DNA of 63,906 nucleotides, the filler included, from Collodictyon triciliatum (lineage: Eukaryota), in NCBI GenBank assembly GCA_043381765.1. It is 6 parts of 6 records of this genome, joined end to end, with 100 filler letters (N's around TTAATTAATTAA, not from the genome) between each part and the next. Parts side by side here need not be neighbours in the genome. Positions count along the whole stretch, not along the records: positions 21,659 to 33,264 come from JBHJMP010002371.1; 5 more parts are not named here. One strand, 5' to 3'. Shown here in pieces: positions 6,916 through 56,752 of the stretch (position 1 is the first letter of the stretch; each line of letters opens with the position of its first letter). Made by a program: the position numbers and the translations under genes. A model generated the notes under the pieces. That model was given only the letters and a program-made list of their open reading frames with translations. It was not told where the DNA came from and ran no database searches.

Positions 6916-9713
6916 TGCCAAGCTTTTTCTCTCTTGAAGCCAGAATATAATGAATTGGTTTACAGTTCTATTATCATGTAATGCTTTCCCTGTATTGCTC
7001 TGTGATTAATTGAAATTCATTCAAACAGGTTCCAAAACCATACCGATATTTTTGCTTGGGAGAGAGTATATCATGTCGGAGAAGAAGGATATAACGGACT
7101 CTATGGAGTCAGAACAAAAGAAATGTTCAGGTTGCTTCACAAAAGAATAATATTTTCATATCGCCTTTCTATACTGTGCCTTATGAACAAAAATATAAAT
7201 TGTAAGAAGTAATATAGACCTTTGAATCAAATGAATGGAAAAACATACAGACCTACCATTACACATGTGACAAACTGAAATTGCGATTATTATATATGCC
7301 TTTTTTTTTTTAAAAAAAAAAAAAGCAATTCTGAATCTTCAACATTAATCTATTTTTTTTAAAAAAAAACTACAGAATCTTGCTCACCAACACACGCGCA
7401 TGATTTTTTGACCTCATTCCGCTCAATTGTTTGGATAATGTATCGAAAGGTTCATCATTCATAACATATGAAAATCGTTGTGTACAGTATTGATGGCGTT
7501 CAAAGCATTTCTGACAGAATATCTATCCTTGAACGAAACAAAACATCATATTGTATGCCATATCGCCACTTAGGATTTCCCTCCTATTGGACCCGCGCTT
7601 TTCACAAGTGATGCTGGATGGGGATGTATGATACGAACTGGCCAAATGATGTTGGCACAGGCCTTCATCCGCCAATTCCTGGGAGCAGGTACATACAATT
7701 AGATTACCTAAACTGATTTATCTTGTTTTATTTTGACATGACAATTAATGAAAGTTTGGAATCAAATGGTTTGACGAATTGGTTTTTCTTTCATGTGTTT
7801 CTTTTTATTACTTTTCTTTTGTTTATTATATTCCAGCACATTCTACACATATCTACACAGCAGTTTGTACCTCAAATACTTTCACATACTAGACTGGAGC
7901 ATCGATAGGAACAGCGACATGAAAATATATGAGGAGGTCAGCAAACTACTGACGGTTATGGCGAGATGGATATTTCTATTTTTTTTTTCATAGCTTAATT
8001 ATATTTCGCCTCTTCTCCCCTTGAAAAGATACTCGGCTGGTTTCGAGACCATTCTGGTGCTTCATCACCGTACTCGATTCACAATATCCTCCACGTATCG
8101 GCCAATTACGGAATGGAGGCGGGCAATTGGTTCTCCCCTAGTTCAATCGGCAACGCTCTTCAGTATGTTAGCGTCTTCATCTGAAATTAATAATTACCAT
8201 TCGCATGCGGTAACATATATTATTTAATCTGGGTTCATGTCTATGAGTATGTTCTCATTCATTTGATGACAAAATGTCGGATCTTTTAAGTCAATTCCTT
8301 TCTGAACAAACATTAATCACGCCTGCAGGTTGTTGGTTAACTCGCACAACCCAAGAGGAATTGTGATGGTCATTTGCCGGTAATACATTTCGTATATATT
8401 TGTGCGTACCTATAGCTGTAGTAATTGATGAGACAATAAAAATTAAACTCACGCAGCTGATTTTATTTCAATCCCAACTTCCTTTCGTGTCTTTTTCAGA
8501 GACGGCTCCATCTATAAAGACCAAGTGAAGCAAACAGCGATGATATCAAACACATGGGCCCCCACTATTGTGTACCTACCTCTTCGCTTGGGACTTGATG
8601 TCATAAATCCTCTATACATGCAACAGATATTACAGGTTCTTTCTATAGTATATATATGAATGTTGTCATCTTTAGTATTAGTGCAGAAGGATGAGCCTCA
8701 TCTATGTTTTTGTGGTTTTTTTCTCCATACATTATTTCACATTCTTTAATTCACCCTATGAATTTATTGATACAAAAGGTATTTCGTTGGACCCAAAGCA
8801 TCGGAATCGTCGGCGGACGCCCTGGTGCATCATATTACTTTGTGGGAGCTCAAGGTTCTTTTCCTATACCGTTGTTTGACCCTTCCATCCATTTCTGAAT
8901 TTTCATTTGAAGTTGAGATTTTATCGCCAAAGACCGTTCTGTTAAAAATATACAAATGTAACCAAAATGCGAAACATGTAAAAGTAACCAGCGATAAAGA
9001 TTATACTAAATACAATGTTGCAATTTTAAAATGAAGTTCATATCACTGTTTCAACAAATAGAAAACAGCCTCTATTATCTTGACCCGCATGTTGTCAAGT
9101 CGTCCCGAGGAGATACGCGTTCCATCATCGAGGTTAGTTTTCATCAGGGTTCTTTGCTGGATATCGCAATGATGAATTCCTTGGACATATTCTAAAAGGA
9201 GAAATAGCAAATTAAGAAATGAATAGTTAATATTAACAATCAATAAATGAAAACAAAAAGAACCAAGAAAAATCAGTAATTTAACTGTGGACGCGACATA
9301 CCCTCTTTCCTTCCAGTCATACAAGAGTCCGTGTCCACGCCGAATGTCGATTGGAGACCTTGACCCATCTCTAGCGATGGGGTTTCTCTGTCCAACAGAA
9401 CAACATTTTGATGACTTGTGCGACAAAATCACTCACGTAAGCGCTATGCCCGAAAGAATGTTTACAATAACCATTAGTATTCATGTAATTATTTTTCATT
9501 CAAAACCTTTTTATGTCAACATTCGCTTTAATTTACCACAAAGCTCTCTGGAACCCCGTTTGCCACTGTGTTTAACAAAATGCCTGGGTATGTTGCATCA
9601 TCCATGGCGCGAATTTCTCGAACCTCTTCAGCCGACCGAGACGTTCAAAATACTTGCGGATATACTATGGTTAATTAGACAGGATGCGGGGTGCACTGGC
9701 ACAGAGAAAATAA
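6916..9713 (+). CDS. ATG4: Autophagy cysteine protease ATG4 (multi-exon; 5' end lost in gap)
   Basis: Spliced exons give [46 protein letters not shown] (catalytic Cys), [51 protein letters not shown] (catalytic Asp/His) and [11 protein letters not shown]. The last exon is less certain. Confidence 0.95.
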
Positions 9714-9804
9714 GGGAGACGTAGGCCGACTCGCCCCTCCCAACACGGAATCTATACTTTATCAAACTTTTCTTGGTATATAAGCATAATACATATATAT
9801 AGTC

Positions 9805-9835
<31 letters not shown>

Positions 9836-9945
9836 TTTTACTTTTTTTTTTTTAAATTTTTTCCTTTTTTTTTTTCTTTTCTTTATCCTTTATTCCTTTT
9901 TNNNNNNNNNNNNNNNNNNNNNNNNNNNNNNNNNNNNNNNNNNNN

Positions 9946-9957
9946 TTAATTAATTAA
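9946..9957. other. Artificial scaffold linker TTAATTAATTAA flanked by N runs (also at 21603, 33309, 44959, 56608)
   Basis: The identical six-frame-stop 12-mer sits between ~44-N blocks at five places, and genes are truncated at these points. Confidence 0.97.
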
Positions 9958-10001
9958 NNNNNNNNNNNNNNNNNNNNNNNNNNNNNNNNNNNNNNNNNNN
10001 N

Positions 10002-18748: not shown

Positions 18749-21558
18749 ATTCTTTACAGATCACACTTAGCGGGATAAAATTAATTTTATAGAAACTGGT
18801 CTTCCATGCGCACTTTGGTTGACACAGTCGTATCGTCTGGTGAAAGTATATTTGGGCTGTCGTTGCTTTTGCTTCTTTTTCTGTTTATCTTTACCCTACT
18901 CGGAATACAGGTTAGCATAACAACCATAAAGCCCTTCCAAATTATGGCTCATTATCTATTCTTGCTTTTTTTTTTCTTATCTTCTTATATATTTCTTTTC
19001 TCTATGTCTTTCCCCTGTCTCTAATCCATATCATGACTCTTATTCTTGTTCTTATCTATCCAAATTCCAGCTTTTTGCTGGAAAGTTTGATTTTCCCGAA
19101 GGCAGGCCACGTAACCACTTCGACAATTTTTTTCAATCCTTTCTGACAGTTTTTCAGGTTATTATCCTAGATTACATCAAAGTCATATAAACAAGTCGAT
19201 GAATGCATATCTTATAATCATCGATAAATTCTCCATTTGAGTATATTATTTTGAGATACATCATATGGAATGCAGGTAGTCGTGATCGACAACTGGAACG
19301 ATGTCGCATTTAATGCCATGCGAGCGACCTCTAATTCATCTGTCCTCTTTTTTATTGTCCTTATTTGCATCGGAGATTGTATCAACACTTTATTTTGATA
19401 GTCATTACGTGACTTGGATTTATTGAAGAAATAATACTACCCTATGATTTTTATGCTGCTATTCCTTAACAATATCAAGACATCATACTCAATCTGTTTA
19501 TTGCCATCATTCTGGACCGATTTTCGGTGGAGACTGAGGAAAAGTGGGAGGATTTATCTGTCCAAAGGCAAATCAATAGAAGGTTGACAACAATAACGAT
19601 AGCCCAAGTTAAACATCAGGTATTTGTAACACATCTTCAACAGCCAAATAAATATTGTCAAAATAGGCGTGCAATTCTAAAACAAGAGGAAAAGGAGAAG
19701 TTCCAGAGACTACTTATAGAAGGTAAATACCAGGATATGATGTCTTCTTTTTCATCAGAATCTTAGTCAAACCATCCTTTACTCTACACAAGTTACCTTT
19801 TCCTTATTTCTTTTTGAATATTACTAGATTCACTCACTGAAGCCAGGAATCCTGATTCGTTGTCGATGAGGGTATACTCTTCTGTTGATATTATGTGACA
19901 TGGAAATCTATGGCGTGTATTTTCTAAAAAATTGTCAAACTGGTCGCCACTTTATTCTCAAGTTTCTCTTTTATGTTCCTTGTAATGAAGCCCAGTTATT
20001 GTTTATCAGTCATTGTTATTCCTACTTGGACATAATGAAAATTATATAGGTGATAAATCCTCAAGATTCAGGCAATATAGAAAAGCGAAATTTGTAAGCA
20101 TTTATATGTCGAATATATTACAGTTATAATTGTTTTGCTGCGTGATTTACTCCTACACAAAATGAAATTACCAATTTATCAGTTTGAAGCGGTACAGATT
20201 AATCAGATTCTAATCTTCAATTCAAAAATAAGCAGACTCGCGGACCGCTTGTTCTTTACGCCTGATGATGAATCTGTTCAGACAGAGTTTGTTAAACAGC
20301 ACTTATAACCATTTAATATTTACTTTATGTATAAATTAGAATATTAATGACGATAGCCCATCGTCAAAATATTAGTATTGAATATGAGTATGTAACCTTG
20401 TTCCAGGTACTAAAAACAGTACCAAAAATCAATTATCTTTTATAGCACAATACACTCAGAAAGCGATTCGATAAGATATAGCAACACCGAAACTCTCGTT
20501 TCTTTTCGCAGCTATTATCGCTCCAATCAGTTTTTTAATAGGTATATATCATTTTATCCAATTGCATCGCGATACTACTGTGCAATATTAACTGGGATAT
20601 TTTTCACGTAGAATTCATGAATTTCACAACCGCAATCTGCAAAACACATTCTACTTTATTCCTCCCAATAATTTCATTCGGCGACGCTGCATTTATTTAG
20701 TTTTCAATCCAATACTAGACTATGGTAATTGTATTAGTTTTACTGTTTTCGTATAATTTTGGAGGAATTTATACTTCTCCTTTTATGATAAAAATCTATG
20801 TGTATAGTTTCTCTTGTTGTCGTAATGCTCAGCTGCATAAATCTGGCCCTGGATAAACCGAGCCTCGATTCAGAAAGCGGATTGGCGAAGGTAACTCTCG
20901 GTGTGCTGTAGGCACCAAATACCATCCATCCTTTATAGCAAAGACCATCATTTAACAGAAAAATTATATTATATGTTTCGATTGAAATACAGTTTATATC
21001 GACATCTGACCCAATCTATCTGGCCATCTTCATTGTAGAAATGTGCATTAAGGTTGAAAAAAATATTGTCAAGATTCTACGCAATCAATATTAATGTGAA
21101 AAAATTGGTTTATATTATTGCACATTCTTGTTTAGGAAAAAAGCTATTCAATTCTCTCTCTCTTTTTTTTTTTTTCTATCGCGAACAGGTCATCGCTCTT
21201 GGATTTGTATTTCCAAAATTTTCTTATTTAAAGTCAAAGTGGAATGTGCTCGATTTTATCGTTATAATCGTAGGTTTACATTCACTGGATATTAGAATAA
21301 TACTCCATAGCCTTTCATCTATACTGCCCGCGCAATGTAGTCTTTTCATTCAGAAAAAGTGTTTGATAATTTTCTCAGTTTTGCTTTGATTAATAGTTTG
21401 GAATTGTCGAGATAGCGTCCGGGGCGAGTCTGAAGGTATCATATTATACTAAATCTTTAAATGATACCTATTCTTAAAAGGGTAGAATATGTCAACGATT
21501 CTGATATATTCTCGTGTTGATTTAATCCCACATAGAGCATCCGATCCATTCGCCTACT
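13834..21558 (+). CDS. Four-domain voltage-gated Ca2+/Na+ channel alpha subunit (domains I, II and part of III; truncated by scaffold end)
   Basis: Exons give HPWFDHFIILTI.NCITLS, AYLKDNWNQLDFIIV, S4 FRALRILRPLKSLSRI, P-loop I FDNIGWATLVIFQCLTFEGWSDVMY, P-loop II FDNFFQSFLTVFQVVVIDNWNDV, IIS6 GDYIILNLFIAII and domain III YLKSKWNVLDFIVI. The start codon is approximate. Confidence 0.93.
18652..18747. repeat. (TGT)n intronic microsatellite
   Basis: Direct inspection. Confidence 0.97.
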
Positions 21559-21658
21559 NNNNNNNNNNNNNNNNNNNNNNNNNNNNNNNNNNNNNNNNNN
21601 NNTTAATTAATTAANNNNNNNNNNNNNNNNNNNNNNNNNNNNNNNNNNNNNNNNNNNN

Positions 21659-25970: not shown

Positions 25971-28900
25971 CAGGAATAATCGTGCTTTCTACCGGAATGA
26001 ACGTTGAAATTCGAAAGATTGCAATCAGTGTTGATGAGGTAGACACCTGGCGTAAAGAAACTTTTTTATTTCTTTTTTCATTAATAATAGAAGAATTCTC
26101 ATTTAATAATTATTCAGGTCTCTTCTAGCTGGACCTCTCATCAACCGGACCACTCAACAGCAGGAAAAAAAACCGTCACGAATGAAGTCGGTGGTGCAAC
26201 TGATTTTGTCAGGCTGATTAAACAGCTCTTCGATGCTTGTTCTGGTGCGTACAAACCACCCAGGTCTTCAGTTTTTTCCTTTTCTTTTTTCTTTCTTTCA
26301 AATTCATGTGGTTATTTTATTATCATTACTGTCACCCTATAAATAATCGCATGAATGAAATAGCCCTTTCCTTTTGGACGAAGTCTGCGAAGGACCGCAT
26401 AAGGCGAAGATTCGAGAAGAAATTCGAAGCGGGCTCATGACAGAGTCAAGAAATCTATGTAAATCTTAATTCATTACTAATTTGGTATTCACATCAACTG
26501 TTCTAATGAACACCAAATATAAGCCACTGTCATAATTTAATGAAAAATGTTTCGATGATAGGCGAGTATGAAAGAAGCGGTCAAACTGCGATGAAGTCAT
26601 CTCCACCAGATTACCTTGGAAGGGGATTGTGCTCTGAGCTCGCTATTCCTCCAAACATCGATCCGAACATTCTGAATGATGAAAATTGCTTCAACGAATC
26701 TGTCAGTCATGCATTTCGCAGTGATGGAGTATGTGAGTTGGGTCCCAATCTCAGAGGGGGAGGAAATGCTTCGTCACGAATGGCCCGCTCCAATGCAAGC
26801 ACCCCATCGCAAACACCCGGCGCCCCATTGCGAACACCCAGCGCCCAACCCGATTCATCATTCGACGTTCTCGAAATTCTGTCCAAACTCAACGAGGCCT
26901 ATCAGTCGACTTCAGCAAACTCAACACCTGGTCAGTTACCAAACATATCCCTACAACTGACTCAGGTGCTGGCGTCTCAGTTATTAATGAGTCCTACCAA
27001 GGAAGAAGATATCAAACTCGTTGAACGCCTTGTTGCACTTCATATGTCTTTAGTAGATAAACAAGCTCAAACTGCTGAGAAACAAGCAGCCATCCAGACT
27101 CGAAGCCTACGAGAACAAGCTGACATACAGACTCAGAGCCTACGAGAACAAAATGAATCAAAGCAAACGCTGATTCAGAGCCTTATTGACCAGGTGTCTC
27201 GTCTGCCAGCATCTCAGCAAACTTCGCAAGTTATTGAATCACTGGTGCACGTTATTTCACCACGAGCAACATCATCGAGCTCTGGCCAAACAAATGCAGG
27301 TATACCCTCACCCATGTCGCAATCTCATGATAATGTTGCTGTCATTACAAGTCAACAATCCAGAGTTAACATCACTCCCACTGCTCAACCGATTCCAACA
27401 AATCCTGCTACACTTCAACAAAAACCTCATGATGTTTCGCAAAACCCACCTCAGCAAGGAGCAATGCCGGCAACTACGGCATCAAATCAGTCCGGAACAA
27501 ACCAATTTACGACGATATCTGTCGATAACTCAACAAAAATTCAACCGATATTGACTTTCAACGATTGGATATCTAGAACAATCGAGTGCGTCGAGACACC
27601 CACGAATGCATCTGAGCTTTCCAAAGCCATATCCGAGCAACGAGACCAACAATACATCAAGAGCGTTGACAAGAAAAGAGCTTTTCGCATAATCAAGCTA
27701 TTCATGAAGGAACAAACCGCTTGGGATGAGAGCTTGAATGAACTTACTGCACTGGCCCCGGCAGGAGACAAACTCATTTCGGAGAAGCTGATAACATCTA
27801 TTGGCACAATGATGGATAAAAAAATGGAGAAGCTAGACCGCTTGCTAGATGCTTTGAATATCGTTGTGGGGAACACACTGAAGGAGGATTTCGACCACAC
27901 GTTGCTAGCTCAAGTCCTAGATATTCTGATAGAGCGTGTCGGAACTCTTTTTTCTTCGGACGAGGCTTTATGTCAAAGAATATTGGATAGTCTGATTTCC
28001 ATCCTGAATTCGCTCTATGTTTCTGGCGCATCAGGAATCCCTGAAGAAAAATACAAAGGCTACAAGGAGACATTTGACCAAAGCTGGATTGATAAAAAAA
28101 TTGAGACTCGTGGGGAAGACATCGATAACAAGATGCAAAGTCAATATTTTCAGGCCAAGAAATCTTTGTTCTGTGAGCTACTAAAGAATATTGGCGATGG
28201 CCAGAGTCCAGTCGTGAAGAATCTGAAAATCGCTGGAAGAGTTGGACTCGGTTTGTTCAACGCTGCATCTGCTGCTTTCTCTTTCGACATCAGCGGCACT
28301 TTGGATTCATTGCAGGAAGTTGCTACCGCTGTTGGAGAAATCGATATCAAAAAGAGTTGGTTTACATTCTATCAAATGTTTCGAGTCAGTTTATTTATCA
28401 GTGTCGATGAGGCGAAAAAAGTATGGGATTCTCAATTTTCAGGAAAGAAAGATAAAATTGGAGAAACCCTGGCATTCCTTATCATCGACACGATTTTTGA
28501 ATGCTATCGACACACTGACAATGGTTCTGAGCGAAGAAAGGTCTACGAATTAATCGAGTCCATCACACATCATGAAAAATGGTTGAAAAGTGAGGTTATT
28601 AACCGATTTGTGGAAACAAAAAAGCTAGAAATGACAACATATAAGCCAAAAGAGTCAAAATTACCTACTGCACTCTTTGAAAAAGCTGGAAAAGACGAGA
28701 GAACAATTCAAGACATCATCGAGAATATCAAGGAGGAAACCATTCGAAATGAAGAATTCAAAAGTCGTTTTAACACTTACATCTCTGGTCAAGCCGAAAG
28801 AATTGTTGAGAAAGGAAAGGTGTTTGGTGCCCAAGAATACATCCTGGATTTCATTGCATCCCCAAAAGAAAAAGTACTGCTCATACTTGGGGATTCTGGA

Positions 28901-31900
28901 TCTGGAAAATCGCTTTTGCAACAGTTTATTATTCGATTGCTTTGGGAAAAGTATGAACATGGAAAGTCACCTATTCCATTGTATGCTGCACTTACTTCTT
29001 TGGTAAAGCCTAGAGAAAACGCCATAGAGGAACTGCTTCTTTCAGAGAGTAAAAACAGCTTCTACATCCCAGACTCTGATTTCCGAAAAGATCAAATCAA
29101 AGAACTGAAAAAGAAACAATTCATCATTTTCCTGGATGGATACGATGAGATTGAAGATAGTGGCAAATCTTTTTATATTTCAAATAAACTTGAAGGATGG
29201 CCCAACTGCAAGTTTGTGATTGGATGCCGAAAGCAGTTTTTGGACAAGAAATATCAGTATCAATCATTTTTTGCCCCCAAAGCTAGTCATGGATACTCTC
29301 TGGATGAAATATATCTGAGACCTTTTGAAAGTAAGCAAAGGTTGGAGTACTTCAACAAGTATGCTGAGAGAAATCCCATTGAAGGATGGGAAAATGGTGA
29401 AAGGTACGAGGAAGAGCTGAAAAAAATCAAGGAACTGGACGAATTGGCCGTCACTCCGTTTATGATTTTCATGGCAGCCACCACACTTCCGTCTATACTA
29501 AAGGAAAGAGCTGAGTTTACTTCAAATTTTAATGAAAAAATCATGAGAACAGATTTTCTGGACAGGTTTTCGAGAAGATGGTTCGAACGCGAAAGAGAAA
29601 AGCTTGAAAATAACTTGTCGTTAAAGCAAAAAATGCCAGAAGATTTACAAAGATTGCTTTGGAATAAGTGCAAAGACATCTCGGAAGTCATGTTCCAGAA
29701 AGGCCATCTTGCTTTGGAGTACGAAAAAGTTGAGGGAAAGGCAAAGAGGCATGAATATGACGAATTTTTCCATCCCAATCCAGACCATATGATTGATGGT
29801 GAGTTAACTTATTCTGTCTTCGTATTGCGATGTGCACCCATCAAGAAATCTAGTGCCACAACCTATGAGTTCCTCCACAAGTCCCTCTACGAATTCTTTG
29901 CTGCTGAATACATCAGAATTGAAATCAATGGTTCTGATGCGGAAAATCAAAGTTCTACCGAATCATCAACGGAAGCTCAAAATGTTGCATCTTCCTCTGA
30001 AGCCGCGAATTCTATTCCTGGAAAATCTGATGCGAAATCACCAAGTTTCAAGCTTTTCAATGCTGTTCATTCTGTGATGAAATCAAAAGTGAAGACGAAT
30101 GTTCTGGATAAAAAGCTTGAACCTGCTATTCTTCTCAATTTGAGTGAAAAAGTGAACAAAGATAAAGCCTATAAAGACAATCTGTTTTCAATCATCGAGC
30201 AATCTAAGAAAGATGCAACCAAAGCGCAAGCTGCATCAAATGCCATCACAATTCTGAATTATGCCGACGTTCCATTCAGTGGCAGGGATTTCAGAGGGAT
30301 TCACATTCCAAATGCCGACATGTCACACTCTGTTGCTGATGGTACTGACTTCACTGGTGCCAACTTGGAGGGTGTTTTATTTTATAATGCGTGCATTTCA
30401 AACTGTGTTTTTGATAATGCAAATATGAAAGGCGTTAATTTTGGTCGTTTGCCTTTGTTTTTGGGACACACAGAATGTGTCTATAGTGTTTGCAGCATTC
30501 AAGGACCGAAAGGTGAAAAGTGGTTGGCCTCTGGAAGTAAGGATAAAACAATACGTCTTTGGGATGTAGCCACAGGAAACCAAATCAAAACATTGGAAGG
30601 TCATACAAATTATGTTAGATACGTTTGCAGTATTAAAGGACCGAATGGTGAGAATTGGCTGGCTTCTGGAAGTGATGATAAAACAATACGTATTTGGGAT
30701 GTAGCCACAGGAAATCAAATTAAAATATTAGAAGGACATACAGAATGTGTCAATAGTGTTTGCAGTATTCAAGGGCCGAATGGTGAAAATTGGTTGGCAT
30801 CTGGAAGTAAGGATAAAACAATACGTCTTTGGGATGTAGCCACAGGAAACCAAATCAAAATATTAGAAGGACATACAGAATGTGTCAATAGTGTTTGCAT
30901 TATTAAAGGACCGAATGGTGAACACTGGTTGGCTTCTGGAAGTTATGACAAAACAATACGTATTTGGGATGTAGCCACAGGAAGCCAAATCAAAATATTA
31001 GAAGGACATACAGAATATGTCTATAGTGTTTGCAGTATTCAAGGACCGAATGGTGAAAATTGGTTAGCTTCTGGAAGTAATGGTAGATCAATATATATTT
31101 GGGATGCAGACACAGGAAATCAAATTAAAATATTAGAAGGACATAAAAGTGTTGTCAGTAGTGTTTGCACTATTCAAGGACCGAATGGTGAACATTGGCT
31201 GGCTTCTGGAAGTGGTGATAAAACAATACGTATTTGGGATGTAACTGCAGGAAATCAAATCAAAATCTTAGAAGGACATACAGGTGGTGTCAATAGTGTT
31301 TGCAGTATTCAAGGACCGAATGGTGAATATTGGCTGGCTTCTGGAAGTGGTGATAACACCATTCGTATTTGGGATGTAGCCACGGGGAACCAAATCAAAA
31401 ATTTAGAAGGACACACAGGTACTGTCAATTGTGTTTGCAGTATTCAAGGACCGAATGGTGAAAACTGGCTGGCTTCTTCTGGAAATAGCGATAGAACAAT
31501 ACGCGTTTGGGATGTAGCAACAGGAAATCAAATCAAAATCTTAGAAGGACATACAGGATGGGTCACTAGTGTTTGTAGCATCCAAGGACCGAATGGTGAA
31601 TATTGGTTGGCTTCTGGAAGTGAAGGTAGAAAAATACGTATTTGGGATGTAGCCACAGGAAACCAGATAAACACATTAGAAGGTTATTTAGGCCGTATCT
31701 GGGGTCTTTGCAGAATTCAAGGACTGAATGGTGAAAATTGGTTGGTTTCTGGCAGTAGTGACCCAATAATACGCATTTGGGATGTAGTCACAGGAAATCA
31801 AATCAAAAAATTAGAGGGTCATAAACGACCTGTCATCAATTTTTGCAGTATTAATGGACCGAATGGTGAAAATTGGCTGGCTTCTGGAAGTGTTGATGAA

Positions 31901-32881
31901 ATAATACGCATCTGGGATGTAGCCACAGGAAACCAAATCAAAACATTAGAAGGTCATACAGATTGGATCATGAGTGTCTGCAGTATTCAAGGGCCGAATG
32001 GCGAAAAGTGGTTGTCTTCTGGGAGTAGAGATAAGACAATACGCATTTGGGATGTAGCCACAGGAAACCAAATCAAAACATTAGAGGGTCATACACAATA
32101 CGTCAATAGTGTTTGCAGTATTCAAGGAACGAAAGGTGAAAATTGGTTGGCTTCTGGAGGTAGTGATAACACAATACGTATTTGGGATGTAGCCACAGGA
32201 AACCAAATCAAAACATTAGAAGGACATACAAATTGGATCATGAGTGTCTGCAGTATTCAAGGGCCAAATGGCGAAAAGTGGTTGTCTTCTGGAAGTGGTG
32301 ATAGTACGATACGTATTTGGGATGTAGCCACAGGAAACCAAATCAAAACATTAGAAGGACATACAAATTGGGCCAACAGTGTTTGCAGTATTCAAGGACC
32401 GAATGGTGAAAATTGGTTGGCTTCTGGAAGTATTGATTAGAGTAGTTTGCATATTTGGGGTGAAGCCTCAAGAAATAAAATACACAGCCTGAAAAAATCA
32501 GAAGCGACCTACAATGAGAAGAGCCAATTGGTCATGAAAGATAAACCAGAAGTCATCGCAGTATTCAATAGTACAAGTGATGCGATGAATATGATTGATA
32601 CAAGCAGAATAATGAACGTGAGAACTGTTCGGATTATCGGCCCAAGAATACTTGAAGCTGCGAATACTCGTATAAACAAAGCCGAACTGGGTGTGATGAA
32701 CAAGAAATTATTTCTGCAAGAAGGTGCTGCTTCCTTTGATGCGGACTTTGTTTCCTATTGTGAGCAGGGTAAGTTCACTAAGTTCCAGGCTCAAATGATG
32801 GCTGAATGCTATGAGAATGGATGGGGTGTTGAGAAGGACATCCAGAAAGCAGCTGAGTGGATACAGAAAGCCACATCTTGA
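25971..32881 (+). CDS. NLR-like STAND protein: spliced N-terminal domain, Q/S/P-rich linker, ARM-like helical region, NACHT, pentapeptide repeats, 15 WD40 repeats, in-frame TAG (32438-32440), C-terminal segment with SEL1-like repeat
   Basis: Walker A GDSGSGKS (~28889), Walker B FIIFLDGYDE (~29120), YEFLHKSLYEFFAA, AASNAITILN, pentapeptide stretch ~30275-30445 and 135-nt WD40 units 30461-32460. Upstream exons 25971-26038, 26118-26263 and 26364-26458 splice in frame to 26562. The true start is further upstream and undetermined. Confidence 0.93.
30461..32460 (+). repeat. Coding tandem array of 15 x 135-nt (45-aa) WD40 units
   Basis: Consensus LEGHTxxVxSVCSIQGPNGExWLASGSxDxTIRIWDVATGNQIKx. Unit 8 has one extra codon. 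Confidence 0.97.
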
Positions 32882-33364
32882 TAAGGTAAGTAAAATCAAA
32901 AATACATATTAATTTATGTTCCTTAATTATGTTTATCTTAGATGGAGAGATTCTCTGGGTTTTTTCAAGCAGACCTCAGCTTTTTCCCAGACGGACGCTC
33001 CATGAAAACAGAATAAAACCATAAAAATGAAATTAGAGCTGATGGATGTCAATTAAATCCTCTCTCTTTTTCTCTTTTTTCTCTTTTTTTCTCTTTTTTT
33101 ATTCTTTTTTCTCTTTTTTCTCTTTTTCTCTTTTTTTCTCTTTTTTTCTTTTCTTTTTTCTTTTTCTTTTTTATTTTTTATTTTTTATTTTTTATTTTTT
33201 ATTTTTTATTTTTTATTTTTTATTTTTTATTTTTTATTTTTTATTTTTTATTTTTTATTTTTTANNNNNNNNNNNNNNNNNNNNNNNNNNNNNNNNNNNN
33301 NNNNNNNNTTAATTAATTAANNNNNNNNNNNNNNNNNNNNNNNNNNNNNNNNNNNNNNNNNNNN

Positions 33365-49716: not shown

Positions 49717-52700
49717 TTAGGCCTGTGTGTTGTTCCAAACAACCGCAGCGACTCCGCGACGATACCTATTGCCATCGTTGTTATTACGATTGTTCCTATA
49801 TCTATTGTGCGTGCTGGGGGGATTCAAGACAGAGTCAAGTCCGAAAATGCATGCACCAATCAGGGAGTAGGTAGATGTGGATGTGGATGCAGTCATGTAG
49901 CAAACGAATCAGATGTAAAGAACAATAACAAGTAGTTGCGGGTAAAGGCGAGCTCACCAAAGAGTCAGGTCGCATGATGAGTCCACAGGAACCGCAACAG
50001 AAAAGAGAAGTTGCTTGCGTGATTGGTTGAGGTAGAAGGGGATGGCGATGGCCGTGCTCGGCTGCGCGTGTGAGGCAGCCTTTGGTGCCCACGAGAGGAA
50101 GCAGAGCGGGAGCTCGTCAACAAGCTTGTCTGACATCTGCATCGCTTTTCCGTCCCACACAGCGCCGAGAAGCGAAACGCCTGCACAAAGGAGAACAGCG
50201 GTTAATAGAGAATAATCTAATCAACCCATTGGATTGTAACCAGCGACAGCCACATTAAATGATGAAAGAAACTCAAAGTCGCACAACAACTTCTCCTTGT
50301 AGATGTGATTATTTTCAAAGGAAACCATATGAGAATATATTCGTTTTTCTTTTTCTTTTTTTTTCTCAGTAGAAATGGTGCTGTGTGCATTACGCACCTT
50401 TGATCTGGTAGCTGAATTCGGTCGAGGACACGGGCTGGCCAACGCAGACATGCATCTCAAGCGTTTCCAGCGACCACGAGTGATGACGGGCGAAGGCTTG
50501 GCGCGTGGCTGTGATGAATGCCTCGGGGCTGAATAGGCCGCCCAGCCAGATGGGCATTGTGTGGATGGACTTTGACCCAATCACAGACGCCAGTTGCTCG
50601 AGGCGTTTCAGCAAATCGTGAATCCAGGCACTTGTTGTTACGTTGGACTCGACTGGATAGAGCTTCCAGGATGATGGCACAATGGCTGGTATTGGATTGA
50701 TGAGGATTTCCACGAGATTAGAAACAAAGAAGAAAGAAGAAAGAAGAAAGAAGAAAGAAGAAAGAAGAAAGAAGAAAGAAGAAAGAAGAAAGAAGAAAGA
50801 AGAAGAAAGAAGAAGAAAGAAGAAGAAAGAAGAAAGAAGAAAGAAGAAAGAAGAAAGAAGAAAGAAGAAAGAAGAAAGAAGAAAGAAGAAAGAAGAAAGA
50901 AGAAAGAAGAAAGAAGAAAGAAGAAAGAAGAAAGAAGAAAGAAGAAAAACGGCAAAGAGGGAAACCAATTGGTCAAATGAAACATATAAACTTTTATTTA
51001 TATTCCGAGTATACTTCGCTCTCCCATAAATGTCTACATCTCTTTGAATATACATTTTGGTCTGGCGTGTGGGATTGGTATTAGAGGAATGACAAACCTT
51101 TGCCAAGGTCAGCCATTAGCTCGCGTGTCCGATTCGTCAGACGGTCTCGCCCATCTGCCACAGCAACGACAGATTCGAGCTCATCGCGCACGAGTCGGAG
51201 CAGCTTTCCGGCAATGTCTGCCTCTCGCTGGAACACACGGGCAAGGGGGTCTGAACTGGATGCAGCCCAGGACGGCTGTGGAATGCTCTGCAAATGTAAA
51301 GTTTTCCCAATTAATTCCCTTCGATTCTATTTTACTAAAAAGAAAGAAATGTACAGGAAAAGAGAATTCGACATTAATTTTTTTTTTCTAAAACCTTGGG
51401 CAGTAAGTTGAGCCATTCTGTTGAGGTGACCCTCAGAGGTGCCATCCAGGCAGGAACACGACTCTCACCGCTTATTTCGTCATCGGAAACCGCCTTCACA
51501 TCGTCATAAATACTNNNNNNNNNNNNNNNNNNNNNNNNNNNNNNNNNNNNNNNNNNNNNNNNNNNNNNNNNNNNNNNNNNNNNNNNNNNNNNNNNNNNNN
51601 NNNNNNNNNNNNNNNNNNNNNNNNNNNNNNNNNNNNNNNNNNNNNNNNNNNNNNNNNNNNNNNNNNNNNNNNNNNNNNNNNNNNNNNNNNNNNNNNNNNN
51701 NNNNNNNNNNNNNNNNNNNNNNNNNNNNNNNNNAGGAGCGGACCAAGATAGAAAACAAATTGATAAAAACGCTCCAGGTAGCTAGGCATCAACAAATTAA
51801 CAAATCAAATATATGCCAACGGTCATAGCAAGTCAGGAATAAATAGTGTATGAGTATATGAGAGGCGTATGATGATATAGGAGACGTAGAAAAAGATATG
51901 ATGAAGAGAGTGACCTTGATTCGTGCGCATCACAATATTTGCGCTTGGGTCTAAACCGTAGAGTGCGGGAGACTCGAAAGTGGGCATCTCGTTAATCCAG
52001 GCCTTGAACTGCTGGTATGTGCTGCTGTCCGGGATGGACACGATATGTGATGCGTCTCCAGCAAGATTGAATCCGTGTGTGTATGCGTTCGGAACAAAGA
52101 GGTGGTCGACAAGCGAAGCGAGAATCTTTTGGTCGAACTCGTTGTCTATGCGGCCGCCGTAGATGCTGTCCTTGAGGATAGTACGGATGGCAACCCACGG
52201 AATCTTCTCCACATCGACGTTGCGGCGGCTTCCAGCAGCCTGGTCAATCCAATAGTCCACCGTCTCGAGCGAGCATTTCAGGTCGTTCTCGTTGAATTCG
52301 TAGTGCTTGGACCAGCCGATTGGTGTATACTGCAGGCGCTGCTGCATGAGAGAATGAATCCACGACACAAGGAAATGTATGCGAGTACGTTCGATGGGGT
52401 CTTTGGAGCTGCGGTTTCTATTGTTGAAAAGTAATAAAATAAATGACATGACATGGTCAAACATGTAATCACTCAGTCAAACTTCTCAGCTGTTGATTGT
52501 GACGATTCTGCAGCTTCAAGAATGTAAACAGTTCATGGAAAAGTAGACATGTGATTTCACTGATAAAGGCTCATACGTTGTGACTGTATTCGAAAAGATG
52601 TTCATGAGCTGTGGTTTCATTCCGCTGGGCTGCTCAAACACAAAGACGCGAGCAGAGCGGATGAGGTTGACAGGCACGATGGCACCTTGTATTTCCATCG

Positions 52701-55700
52701 CCAAGAAGATGCGGAATTCAGGATGTGGCCTCAAGGTGTACAACTTCTTCTCCAATTGCGAGAGCCATTGCGGTGCGAGATGGATGTTTTTCAGCATGGC
52801 CCAGAAACCATTCTTTGCAGCGACGTTGATGGCCTTCTCCGCCAGGTCAAAGCCCTACAATTACGAATGCAAATTTTTTTTATTATTCAAAAGAAAAGAA
52901 AATAGCAGAGCATATCATTGAAACAAAAATTGCAGGTATGTTATTCCTATTTGTGCAAAATTTGTCTATGATTAAGCAATCACTTCGGCAGAACCGATAG
53001 CGACAGTGTTCAGTTCTTTTCCAAGCTGTGAAGCGGCTATATCGACAAGTGTGGTTGGGTCGTAACCAGGGCGACTGCAAAGGAGCATCGGTGTTGATGA
53101 GTTTAAATCATCCTGTCAGATAAGTGAATTGGGTTGTGATGTTAGCTGCTTTTCAAACATAAACAAACAACGGACAGAGCCGCTGGAGTGGGCCCCTTTA
53201 GCTCCGTTTGTTAATATATCGATATTAACAGTGAGTTGGTTACCTTTTAATATTTTTTTTTTTTGGCATTAGGTATAGGGGAATATTGGAAATATTATGA
53301 AACCTTATAAATACTCTGAATATCAACTGCCTTAGTTTCAGTGAATCTTGGATTGTCAAAGACCAGGCCAACAAACTCCTCTACAGCATCACAAAGGAAC
53401 TCAGGACGGAAAATCTTTGTGAAAAGAATCTTGTGGAACTTATTGACGATGGGTGACCTCTCTGTTTTCAAAGGATGGGTGAGTCATCCTGTTGAGTTTT
53501 ATCACATAGAAAGGATTATCACTTGTCATGGAAGCAAAGACTGGCACGATTTAAATCACGCACCTTTTCCAACAGCAAAGTCCACTTGAGTCAGCGAGGT
53601 GAATCGCTTGTATGCTTCAAAGTTGCTCTGTTGAGCGCTGACTATGGAAACAATATCACGAAGAGAAGGAACTGCAACGGACACCTGGGCAACAAATTTT
53701 CGCTCTGCATCGCTCATCCACGAAGGAAGCATCGTCCAGGTGCTTGGCTGTGTTTCCGACCCCTGTATCCATAGGTTACAATTTGAAATAGATGTGCGAT
53801 GGTAAATATAGTCAAGACTGAAAACAAAATATTATAAAAGCGCTTTGTATTAATATGCATATGGAGCTCAGAAAAGAATCGTCCAGTTGTTTGCACGCGC
53901 TATAATTTCGTATGCTCCTGACAAACCTTGAGTATGTAAGACAATTCCAGAGGATCGGGCTCGTTCTCGTTTCCGTTGAGATATATCATGGCCAAGTGAA
54001 ATGCGAAGAGAAGTTTATCCTCATTGAGCAGCCCTCGGGAGACTTTTTGGTAAAGCAGCGCAAAGATATCGTATTTCTGTTCGAATTCCAACCAAAGAAA
54101 ATGATAGGGAGGAATGAGTATGTTATTCTTGAAAAAAACGTTTTTCAATAGATATAGTGCAAACCAGGAGCGCCAGACGGGACGCAGCATCAGATGTGCT
54201 CTTTGTTGGCGAGGAGTTCAAAACCTTGTTGAAGGCATCTAAAAGGATACAATGAAGGGAAATGAGATAAAGAAAGGACTTTAGTCAAAAAAAGGATACG
54301 GCACACATATGTTATAGTTCCAACAAAAAAAAAAGTTATCAGGAAGCAAGGAGAAAGAAATAAAATGACAAAAGTAAAAGAGAGCTGACCCATGAAGAAG
54401 CCAAGTGAGAATTGATAGAGTGGGTGAATAATGCCAAGCTCCTCCAGGGTAAAATACACTCGACTACACGAATCGGCAAAAGGCTTGTATATTGCGCTAC
54501 ACATTTTAGTACAGTTAAGACTTGCCAACATTCATACAAGCGTAAAAACACTCCAACCGCGAACCAAAATGAATCAAATTCATGGCATTTTATAGCTAGC
54601 AAAGAGAAAAGAAAATGTTGAGTAAGTTGGCTGTTTTTTGAGGACTTTTAATTCCTACCTAACATCGTTGACTTCCTGCATGACATTTTCAGCCTCAGCG
54701 GCCTTTCGGTTGATTTGGCTAGCTTCATTCTTTAGCTGCTCCAGTGAAGATATTACGTGGTCGTCATCGAGGATGCTTCCTGCGATATTTTTATTCAAGA
54801 TTAATTGTGTTGCATGATACCCCCGACGACTAAGAGCGATTTTGTAAGAGCACAAGGATGAAAGAAAAAAAACCAAAAGAAAATTCAAAATCCTTTCATG
54901 ACAGGAGAAATAGAGACCTTGAGCTTCTGAGAGTGCTATCAATAAAGATTTCTCAAGCTTTCTGAGCTTGACACGGAACTCTCCTTGGAGTTTGTATATG
55001 TCCGAGCGCTTTTGCTCAATATCGGGTCGTTCCAGCTTCAAAGAAAAACCAAAGAAAATATGCATATTGTCAGAGATGCTAGATATCAGCGGATGGTCTG
55101 CAGGACAAGTATGATGCGAGCATCTGGGAGGAGTACCTTCATAATCTGGTTGAGGCATTGGCTGGAAAGGCTCGCGTTTGTCACCGTGAAGTTGACGAAA
55201 GTGACGCGGCTACAGATGTCAGGCGGGAAGCAGAAAGTGGGGTCGCGGGTCGTCAGGTATATGCAGAATGATGGTGAAAAGTCGATTTCTTGGTCACCCA
55301 GCCGAATCAACGTGCGCCCTCCAGTTTTGTGGATTTCCTGCGTAGAAGTTTAAGCTTGGTTTCTCGAGCGATAAAAGAATTCGCTATGTAAATTCAAAGC
55401 GACAACACAAGTCAAACTTAATTGCTTTCCTTTCATCTCAATTTTTTTTAGAAGAATATGATTCGAATCGAATCGAAATGATAATCAAACCCGGTTGAGA
55501 ACGGGGTTCAGAATCGGGTCGATGCGTTCGACGTCTTGGACAAGAAGGGGATACCCGAAGCGAAGGCAGCTTTCCAGACTTTTCATGAACGACTCGTCTT
55601 TTTGCATGTGTGTTTGTTTAGATAGCCACTTTGTAGTGGTCACGTGAATGAGAAAATTAAATAACATAAAAGAAGAGAGAATTGCCAAGTAAAAGGGCTA

Positions 55701-56541: not shown

Positions 56542-56752
56542 TTTTTTTTTTTTTTTTTTTTTTNNNNNNNNNNNNNNNNNNNNNNNNNNNNNNNNNNNNN
56601 NNNNNNNTTAATTAATTAANNNNNNNNNNNNNNNNNNNNNNNNNNNNNNNNNNNNNNNNNNNNTTTCTCTTCTTTCTCTTCTTTCTCTTCTTTCTCTTCT
56701 TTCTCTTCTTTCTCTTCTTTCTCTTCTTTCTCTTCTTTTTTTTTTTTCATCA

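Follow-up and report, generated by a model that had tools for sequence, protein, structure and literature searches.

An in-frame TAG in the last WD40 repeat of a NACHT, pentapeptide-repeat and WD40 receptor gene, with a conserved C-terminal frame open behind it

The gene described here lies on the plus strand of the window (the whole stretch of DNA that was analysed, 63,906 nucleotides with filler included), which comes from Collodictyon triciliatum. ORF calling gives an uninterrupted frame of 1966 codons at 26540-32437, encoding 1966 aa and closed by an in-frame TAG at 32438-32440. Its product opens with a Q/S/T-rich N-terminus, followed by a region shared with P0072, an ORF of the EukProt Diphylleia rotans transcriptome, and then by a NACHT domain, pentapeptide repeats and a WD40 array. 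In residues 1-770 no Pfam family exceeds its curated cut-off. The first ~377 residues (26540-27670) are Q/S/T/P-rich, have no Pfam match and have no counterpart in P0072; homology to that protein begins near 27671, at about residue 378, as judged by tblastn. The NACHT NTPase domain (28874-29368, residues 779-943) carries the P-loop GDSGSGKS and scores 33.6 bits against PF05729 (cut-off 26.7). Between it and the WD40 array lie pentapeptide repeats (30260-30448, residues about 1241-1303; PF00805, 28.8 bits, cut-off 20.2), and the segment that holds them can be aligned to P0072 and to a second ORF of the same transcriptome, P0104.

The WD40 array consists of 15 units of 135 nt (45 aa) at 30464-32494, as delimited by TRF, Pfam and a unit split. 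Pfam recognizes 15 WD40 stretches (E 3.5e-126), TRF reports a period of 135 with 14.6 copies and 82% matches reaching 32431, and the unit split yields 14 complete units of 44-46 residues plus a 15th (32351-32494 by unit alignment) that holds the TAG. Third-position GC is 0.26 in the array (30470-32437), 0.40 in 26540-30469 and 0.42 in 32441-32878; the low value of the array fits a separate, homogenised repeat history. Behind the TAG, a 146-codon tail (32441-32878) comprises strands C and D of blade 15, a linker, a C-terminal cap motif, LEAANTRINKAELGVMNKKLFLQEGA (32651-32728), and one Sel1 repeat (32795-32872, tail residues 119-144). It ends at a TGA at 32879-32881, the normal stop position of the family, where paralogue transcripts have TAA. 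A 56-nt intron, GTAAGT...TTAG (32886-32941), starts 4 nt past this stop in the 3' UTR, behind a 6.3-kb coding region that is otherwise free of introns. The locus is best explained as one member of a greatly expanded STAND/NLR-like receptor family in a flagellate related to Diphylleia. Within the window it is the only copy detected, with 0 of 7 HSPs falling outside the gene in tblastn searches with P0001, P0072 and P0104.

Elsewhere in the window, dynein heavy chain exons (Dynein_C, AAA_lid_11, D6 P-loop and AAA_9) lie on the minus strand at about 50393-55209, which fits a flagellate, and fragments of an ATG4-like C54 peptidase and of an ion-transport protein are found at 9251-9721 and 21039-21386. 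Just downstream of the gene, beside a masked stretch, is a T-rich microsatellite of about 200 nt (33067-33264; TTTTTTA and related periods). Runs of 44 N occur as five pairs with 12 bases between the two members (9902-10001, 21559-21658, 33265-33364, 44915-45014 and 56564-56663); the pairs recur every 11.65-11.7 kb and look like technical masking, not biology.

A sequence-only reading of this stretch had claimed that an in-frame TAG sits inside the last WD40 repeat, at a place where other repeats have Asp followed by Lys, Asn or Ser, that about 146 codons stay open behind it, and that these encode a motif resembling the terminal one of the family together with a SEL1-like repeat; the results of this and the next paragraph bear out the core of this. 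The codons around the stop are GGA AGT ATT GAT TAG AGT AGT TTG CAT ATT TGG, with the TAG lying in unit 15 immediately 3' of the conserved Asp codon. At the corresponding place the other 14 units have K in six cases, R in three, N in two and S, P and E once each, encoded by AAA (5), AAG (1), AGA (3), AAC (2), AGT, CCA and GAA. Unit 15 exceeds the canonical length by one codon, and the place of the three extra bases is ambiguous. In gapless registers against unit 14 the spacing changes from 135 to 138 between GAT 32435-32437 and AGT 32441-32443, and a register switch exactly between these two codons implies that the TAG is itself the extra codon; a MAFFT alignment against all units instead sets the gap at 32445-32447 and aligns the TAG with the K/N/S codon. 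When the TAG is translated as X, the frame continues to 2113 residues and ends at the TGA at 32879-32881, the TAG being the only stop read through. The 146 sense codons behind it contain no in-frame stop, while the two remaining forward frames have 11 and 17; none of 20,000 shuffled tails stayed open, and the expectation from base composition is ~2.4e-5. The open frame behind the TAG is not a matter of chance.

The tail also has homologues. An exhaustive HMMER search with its 146 residues returned 6725 proteins at E <= 0.001; among the 150 matches listed nearly all cover the Sel1 repeat only, and only the two Diphylleia proteins extend beyond it. P0104 (2619 aa) aligns query residues 5-145 with its residues 2471-2613 (E 3.9e-19), and P0072 (2169 aa) likewise matches the tail far beyond the Sel1 repeat. 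In both, the WD40 array passes into the tail without a stop, an architecture shared with the gene in the window, and their tblastn alignments span the TAG and reach 32875 and 32872, respectively. Tail identity is 40% to P0104 and 32% to P0072, with 32 columns invariant across the three tails. The two Diphylleia proteins agree at 42 positions of the tail, and the window gene matches them at 32; the symmetric comparisons for the intact Diphylleia relatives give 32 of 58 and 32 of 46 kept. The tail of the window gene is thus no more deviant than that of either intact relative. Searching with the NACHT region brought up six further, more distant relatives with about 21-29% identity, among them proteins of Mortierella alpina and Entomortierella parvispora; three of the six (P0171, P0172 and P0174) terminate in the cap motif found at 32651-32728 behind the TAG. 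This motif, L..a.n..I......L...N..LL.Q.GA, aligns with all five relatives compared (P0104, P0072, P0171, P0172 and P0174). The Sel1 repeat scores 31.2 bits against PF08238 (cut-off 30.7). These comparisons show that the 146-codon tail is a true C-terminus of the family. A word-index protein search with the tail region gave no match, a word-index search with the tail alignment gave 18 matches, all Sel1-only, and an ESM Atlas search with the tail core gave no usable match. A metagenome scan with the tail produced a single locus, L001, which was discarded as it encodes an unrelated TIR-like/Sel1 protein.

We compared 32250-33000 (751 nt) with the contigs of four sequencing runs at a likeness of at least 85%. 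Two of these, X1 and X4, whose kind was guessed to be RNA, come from two organisms in one study; X2 and X3 are freshwater metagenomes that did not differ in their results and may represent a single data set. Word sharing with a run reached 0.19 at best, the stretch being poorly represented in all of them. On the 751 nt, 334 contigs of X1 and 286 of X4 could be placed, and such numbers indicate that the family is very large in the X1 and X4 organisms. Across the four runs only one contig covers position 32438: X1 record 5 (242 nt, 32407-32648), which differs from the window by 27 other letters and 6 gap letters. It reads GAC AAA ACA ATA CGC ATC TGG GAT GTA (DKTIRIWDV), with Lys where the window has the TAG, and beyond this point continues along the tail seen in the window; the contig stems from a paralogue or orthologue, not from the present allele. 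None of X1, X4, X2 and X3 has a contig of the present allele over 32432-32535, a gap that proves nothing, while an exact 120-nt contig at 32619-32738 (X1 record 7) may stem from the present gene or from a near-identical paralogue.

As to whether paralogues or relatives share the stop, a check proposed with the sequence-only reading, all three sequences that cover the site have a sense codon: AAA in the one bridging contig, and a sense codon in each of the Diphylleia proteins P0104 and P0072. With the TAG in 0 of 3, the stop appears, as far as the data reach, to be private to the present copy. From position 32480 onward, 21 single-base differences are listed for the tail, of which 10 are synonymous, against 20% expected (p 0.004). 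This count draws on 40 of 121 difference rows, pooled over paralogues, and shows purifying selection on the tail of the family, not on the present copy. Around the stop, a stretch of 41 nt (32437-32477) carries ~14 substitutions and the 3 extra bases relative to two paralogue contigs, while its flanks differ by ~10%; the paralogues read canonical DKTIRIWDVATGNQ here and the present copy reads D*SSLHIWGEASRNK. Across the linker at 32458-32535 all contigs placed depart from the window, which makes this stretch suitable for distinguishing the copies. The 24 nt surrounding the TAG are unique within the window, and no local template for these diverged 24 nt, direct or inverted, was found.

A structural model of the end of the protein places the stop in a propeller. 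A single-sequence model of 823 aa was unusable (pLDDT 44), and a model of units 8-15 with the tail, built from a six-sequence alignment, reached a pLDDT of 79. Its best PDB matches are eight-bladed propellers, namely Tako8 (TMt 0.88-0.90 over about 364 columns), ODA16 and Rsa4. In this model units 8-15 are predicted to form an 8-bladed propeller with unit 15 as the closing blade, and the TAG falls in the B-C turn of that eighth blade, between strand B (337-343) and strand C (349-353). Model confidence is moderate at the TAG (64-77) and low in the linker (< 55).

On balance, the TAG probably marks a young, real nonsense allele (a null or a truncation) in a birth-and-death receptor family. The sequence-only reading had left the choice between a recent nonsense allele, a consensus error, and readthrough or editing. 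Of these, the nonsense allele is now favoured by the sense codon in relatives, the undecayed tail and the lack of a second lesion; for readthrough, editing or splicing no support was found, with no significant RNA structure, no shared stop and no joint across the TAG, although these are weak negatives. We infer that the TAG is real in the DNA, where it would have arisen by substitution of a Lys/Asn/Ser-type codon or within a 3-nt insertion. The nonsense event would be very young or still segregating, with both the 146-codon tail and the remainder of the gene intact and undecayed. Translation would end at residue 1966, giving a product that in the model would be missing the cap, the helices of the Sel1 repeat and two strands from the blade that closes the second, 8-bladed propeller, and because of these losses the allele is most likely null or crippled and its product non-functional.

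The age of such an event can be bounded. No other disabling change or stop is present in 2112 codons, so that the gene, if dead, would have been inactivated within about 1% neutral divergence (< about 1% at 95%, the whole gene being assumed neutral). The bound from the tail alone is 15% (95%), and the open tail on its own is weak evidence of youth. A long-dead unitary pseudogene was rejected in view of the single stop in 2113 codons and the 32 of 42 family-conserved tail positions kept.

The 3' UTR intron bears on the fate of the message. In contigs of X1 and X4, four other letters link 32879 directly with 32940, equivalent to the removal of 56 nt, and the family's stop reads TCT TAA, whereas an X2/X3 DNA contig continues into the intron; its absence from X1 and X4 and presence in DNA argue that X1 and X4 are RNA. 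Its splicing is seen in at least three types of paralogue transcript. In animals and plants, nonsense-mediated decay follows an established junction rule. The TAG lies 445 nt upstream of the intron junction, which makes the mRNA of the allele a possible target, and the transcript may be degraded by this route in addition to the loss of the C-terminus from the protein; set against this step is the need to carry the junction rule over from animals and plants to the present lineage. It is a speculative and distinctly improbable idea that the stop-proximal intron acts as a tripwire against premature stops or, alternatively, that a leaky TAG yields a short and a full-length receptor. If the tripwire were true, nonsense-mediated decay would detect premature stops generated by the unstable array and silence the allele.

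A consensus or assembly error, behind which would stand an intact receptor of 2113 residues (2112 if three bases are spurious), is unlikely, and it is kept as an option because no contig of the present allele covers the site in X1, X4, X2 or X3. The remaining gene is flawless and the tail undecayed, as in an intact gene, and the site lies right where a 2-kb tandem array ends, one that has hundreds of paralogues, a setting in which mis-mapped reads can spoil polishing; the divergence of 32437-32477 beyond its flanks, which counts against a young allele, could likewise reflect a badly polished repeat-array end. Mis-assemblies are reported for WD40 arrays of Podospora (PMC12222747). Yet a stop is rarely produced by a substitution or 3-nt error, the 24 nt at the TAG are unique in the window, and the net length change preserves the frame. 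A consensus contaminated by paralogues should moreover look more canonical, whereas the TAG stretch lies further from the canonical repeat than the paralogues do, which speaks against an error. Rather improbable, too, is a real TAG that leaves the 1966-residue protein as a working shorter receptor with 14 complete blades and a tail that is dispensable or newly lost. Fourteen complete units are enough for two 7-bladed propellers, the 1966 upstream codons are intact, and a tail that has stayed open allows for neutral divergence of up to about 15% and could be free-running; contrary to the null reading, a truncated protein with 14 complete blades might be functional. On the other hand, conservation of the cap motif reaches as far as Mortierella-type relatives, whose NACHT regions show only about 29% identity, which argues that the cap is needed; the model makes unit 15 the closing blade of an 8-bladed propeller; and family-conserved residues have not been lost in excess from the tail (32 of 42 kept).

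That the stop is recoded, by programmed readthrough, UAG-to-UGG editing or an unusual decoding of TAG, to give a short and a full-length receptor is very unlikely. The tail is intact and in frame, and low-level readthrough is compatible with the data. An A as the first base after a stop is not known as a readthrough-promoting context, and the codon that follows the TAG begins with A. The stop recurs in 0 of 3 relatives covering the site, and the RNA folds at and downstream of it are no better than those of shuffles: 32438-32540 has a z of -1.36, with 22 of 200 shuffles folding as well, and 32409-32469 a z of -0.48, its A being paired and not looped in the best fold. The UAG has the U at -1 preferred by fungal A-to-I editing according to the part of the literature at hand (PMC11156358), which is trivially true of any UAG, and the host is no ascomycete. 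Reassignment of TAG was judged unlikely, with one TAG in 2113 codons and paralogues that end in TAA or TGA. Removal of the TAG by an intron that leaves the mature mRNA in frame is extremely improbable. By chance, 634 GT/GC..AG pairs span the site, and ~100 of the 634 leave at least 40 open codons past the junction, nearly all of them keeping the frame of the tail; but no pair has a strong donor like that of the real 56-nt intron (GTAAGT...TTAG), and every pair would delete conserved WD40 or tail residues that can be aligned to relatives. Among the contigs, no GT..AG joint crosses the site. The joints over the region end in CT..TC, AT..CT, TT..AA and TG..CA, and are paralogues with other linkers. 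Splicing over the TAG was rejected on these grounds, namely joints that are not GT..AG and carry unknown inserts, poor donors, and the conserved residues that would be deleted.

The nonsense copy resembles an NWD-type case in a distant lineage, and the NWD/HNWD genes of Podospora anserina (het-d, het-e and nwd6/nwdp-1) are, in the sections of the literature consulted, the closest described. There, as here, a NACHT domain precedes near-identical WD40 units in a large paralogous family, and natural stop alleles occur inside a WD40 unit with the rest of the array intact, the Podospora genes being broken or intact by strain. In Podospora (PMC1805685, PMC12222747), NWD pseudogenes are described that retain intact WD40 units and carry one stop, where a unit begins; reads support two stops within the sixth repeat of a het-d allele; some strains have an intact nwdp-1; and one deletion in a WD40 array was judged to be a mis-assembly. 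Unlike Podospora NWD, the present gene has pentapeptide repeats ahead of its WD40 units and, behind them, a conserved cap and Sel1 repeat, and it is carried by a protist allied to Diphylleia, whereas Podospora is an ascomycete. Premature-stop genes of Fusarium and Neurospora that are rescued by A-to-I editing of UAG to UGG (PMC11156358, PMC5496914) share with it an in-frame UAG followed by an intact conserved frame. In those genes the edited stop is reportedly common to the orthologues and placed in a hairpin loop, whereas the present stop is unshared, has no significant hairpin and belongs to an unrelated lineage.

Among sequence relatives, the Diphylleia rotans proteins belong to the same family, with a WD40 array running into the same tail. 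They differ in having no stop in the last repeat, in the extension of P0072 into a long Sel1-rich region, and in the distinct N-terminal half of P0104, which has TPR-like sequence. The Mortierellomycota proteins P0172 (Mortierella alpina) and P0174 (Entomortierella parvispora) share the domain order, the cap motif and about 29% identity in the NACHT region. Unlike the protist family, they stop 10-20 residues past the cap motif, whereas the protist family adds GAASFD..F...C......FQA..MA.CY and one or more Sel1 repeats.

A lone nonsense codon in a fast-turning receptor family is in itself ordinary, and fungal NWD genes show the same in the parts of their published descriptions drawn on here. Of greater value is the very large, transcribed NACHT-pentapeptide-WD40 family in a deep-branching freshwater flagellate of CRuMs type, near Diphylleia; no paper on such a protist family was found in the literature searched. 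The protist family shares its cap with Mortierella-type fungal proteins, the Sel1 module being extra in the protist, and the domain order and cap common to it and to P0171, P0172 and P0174 of the Mortierellomycota raise the question of common descent versus transfer. The family could therefore inform the origin and turnover of NLR-like repertoires outside animals, plants and fungi.
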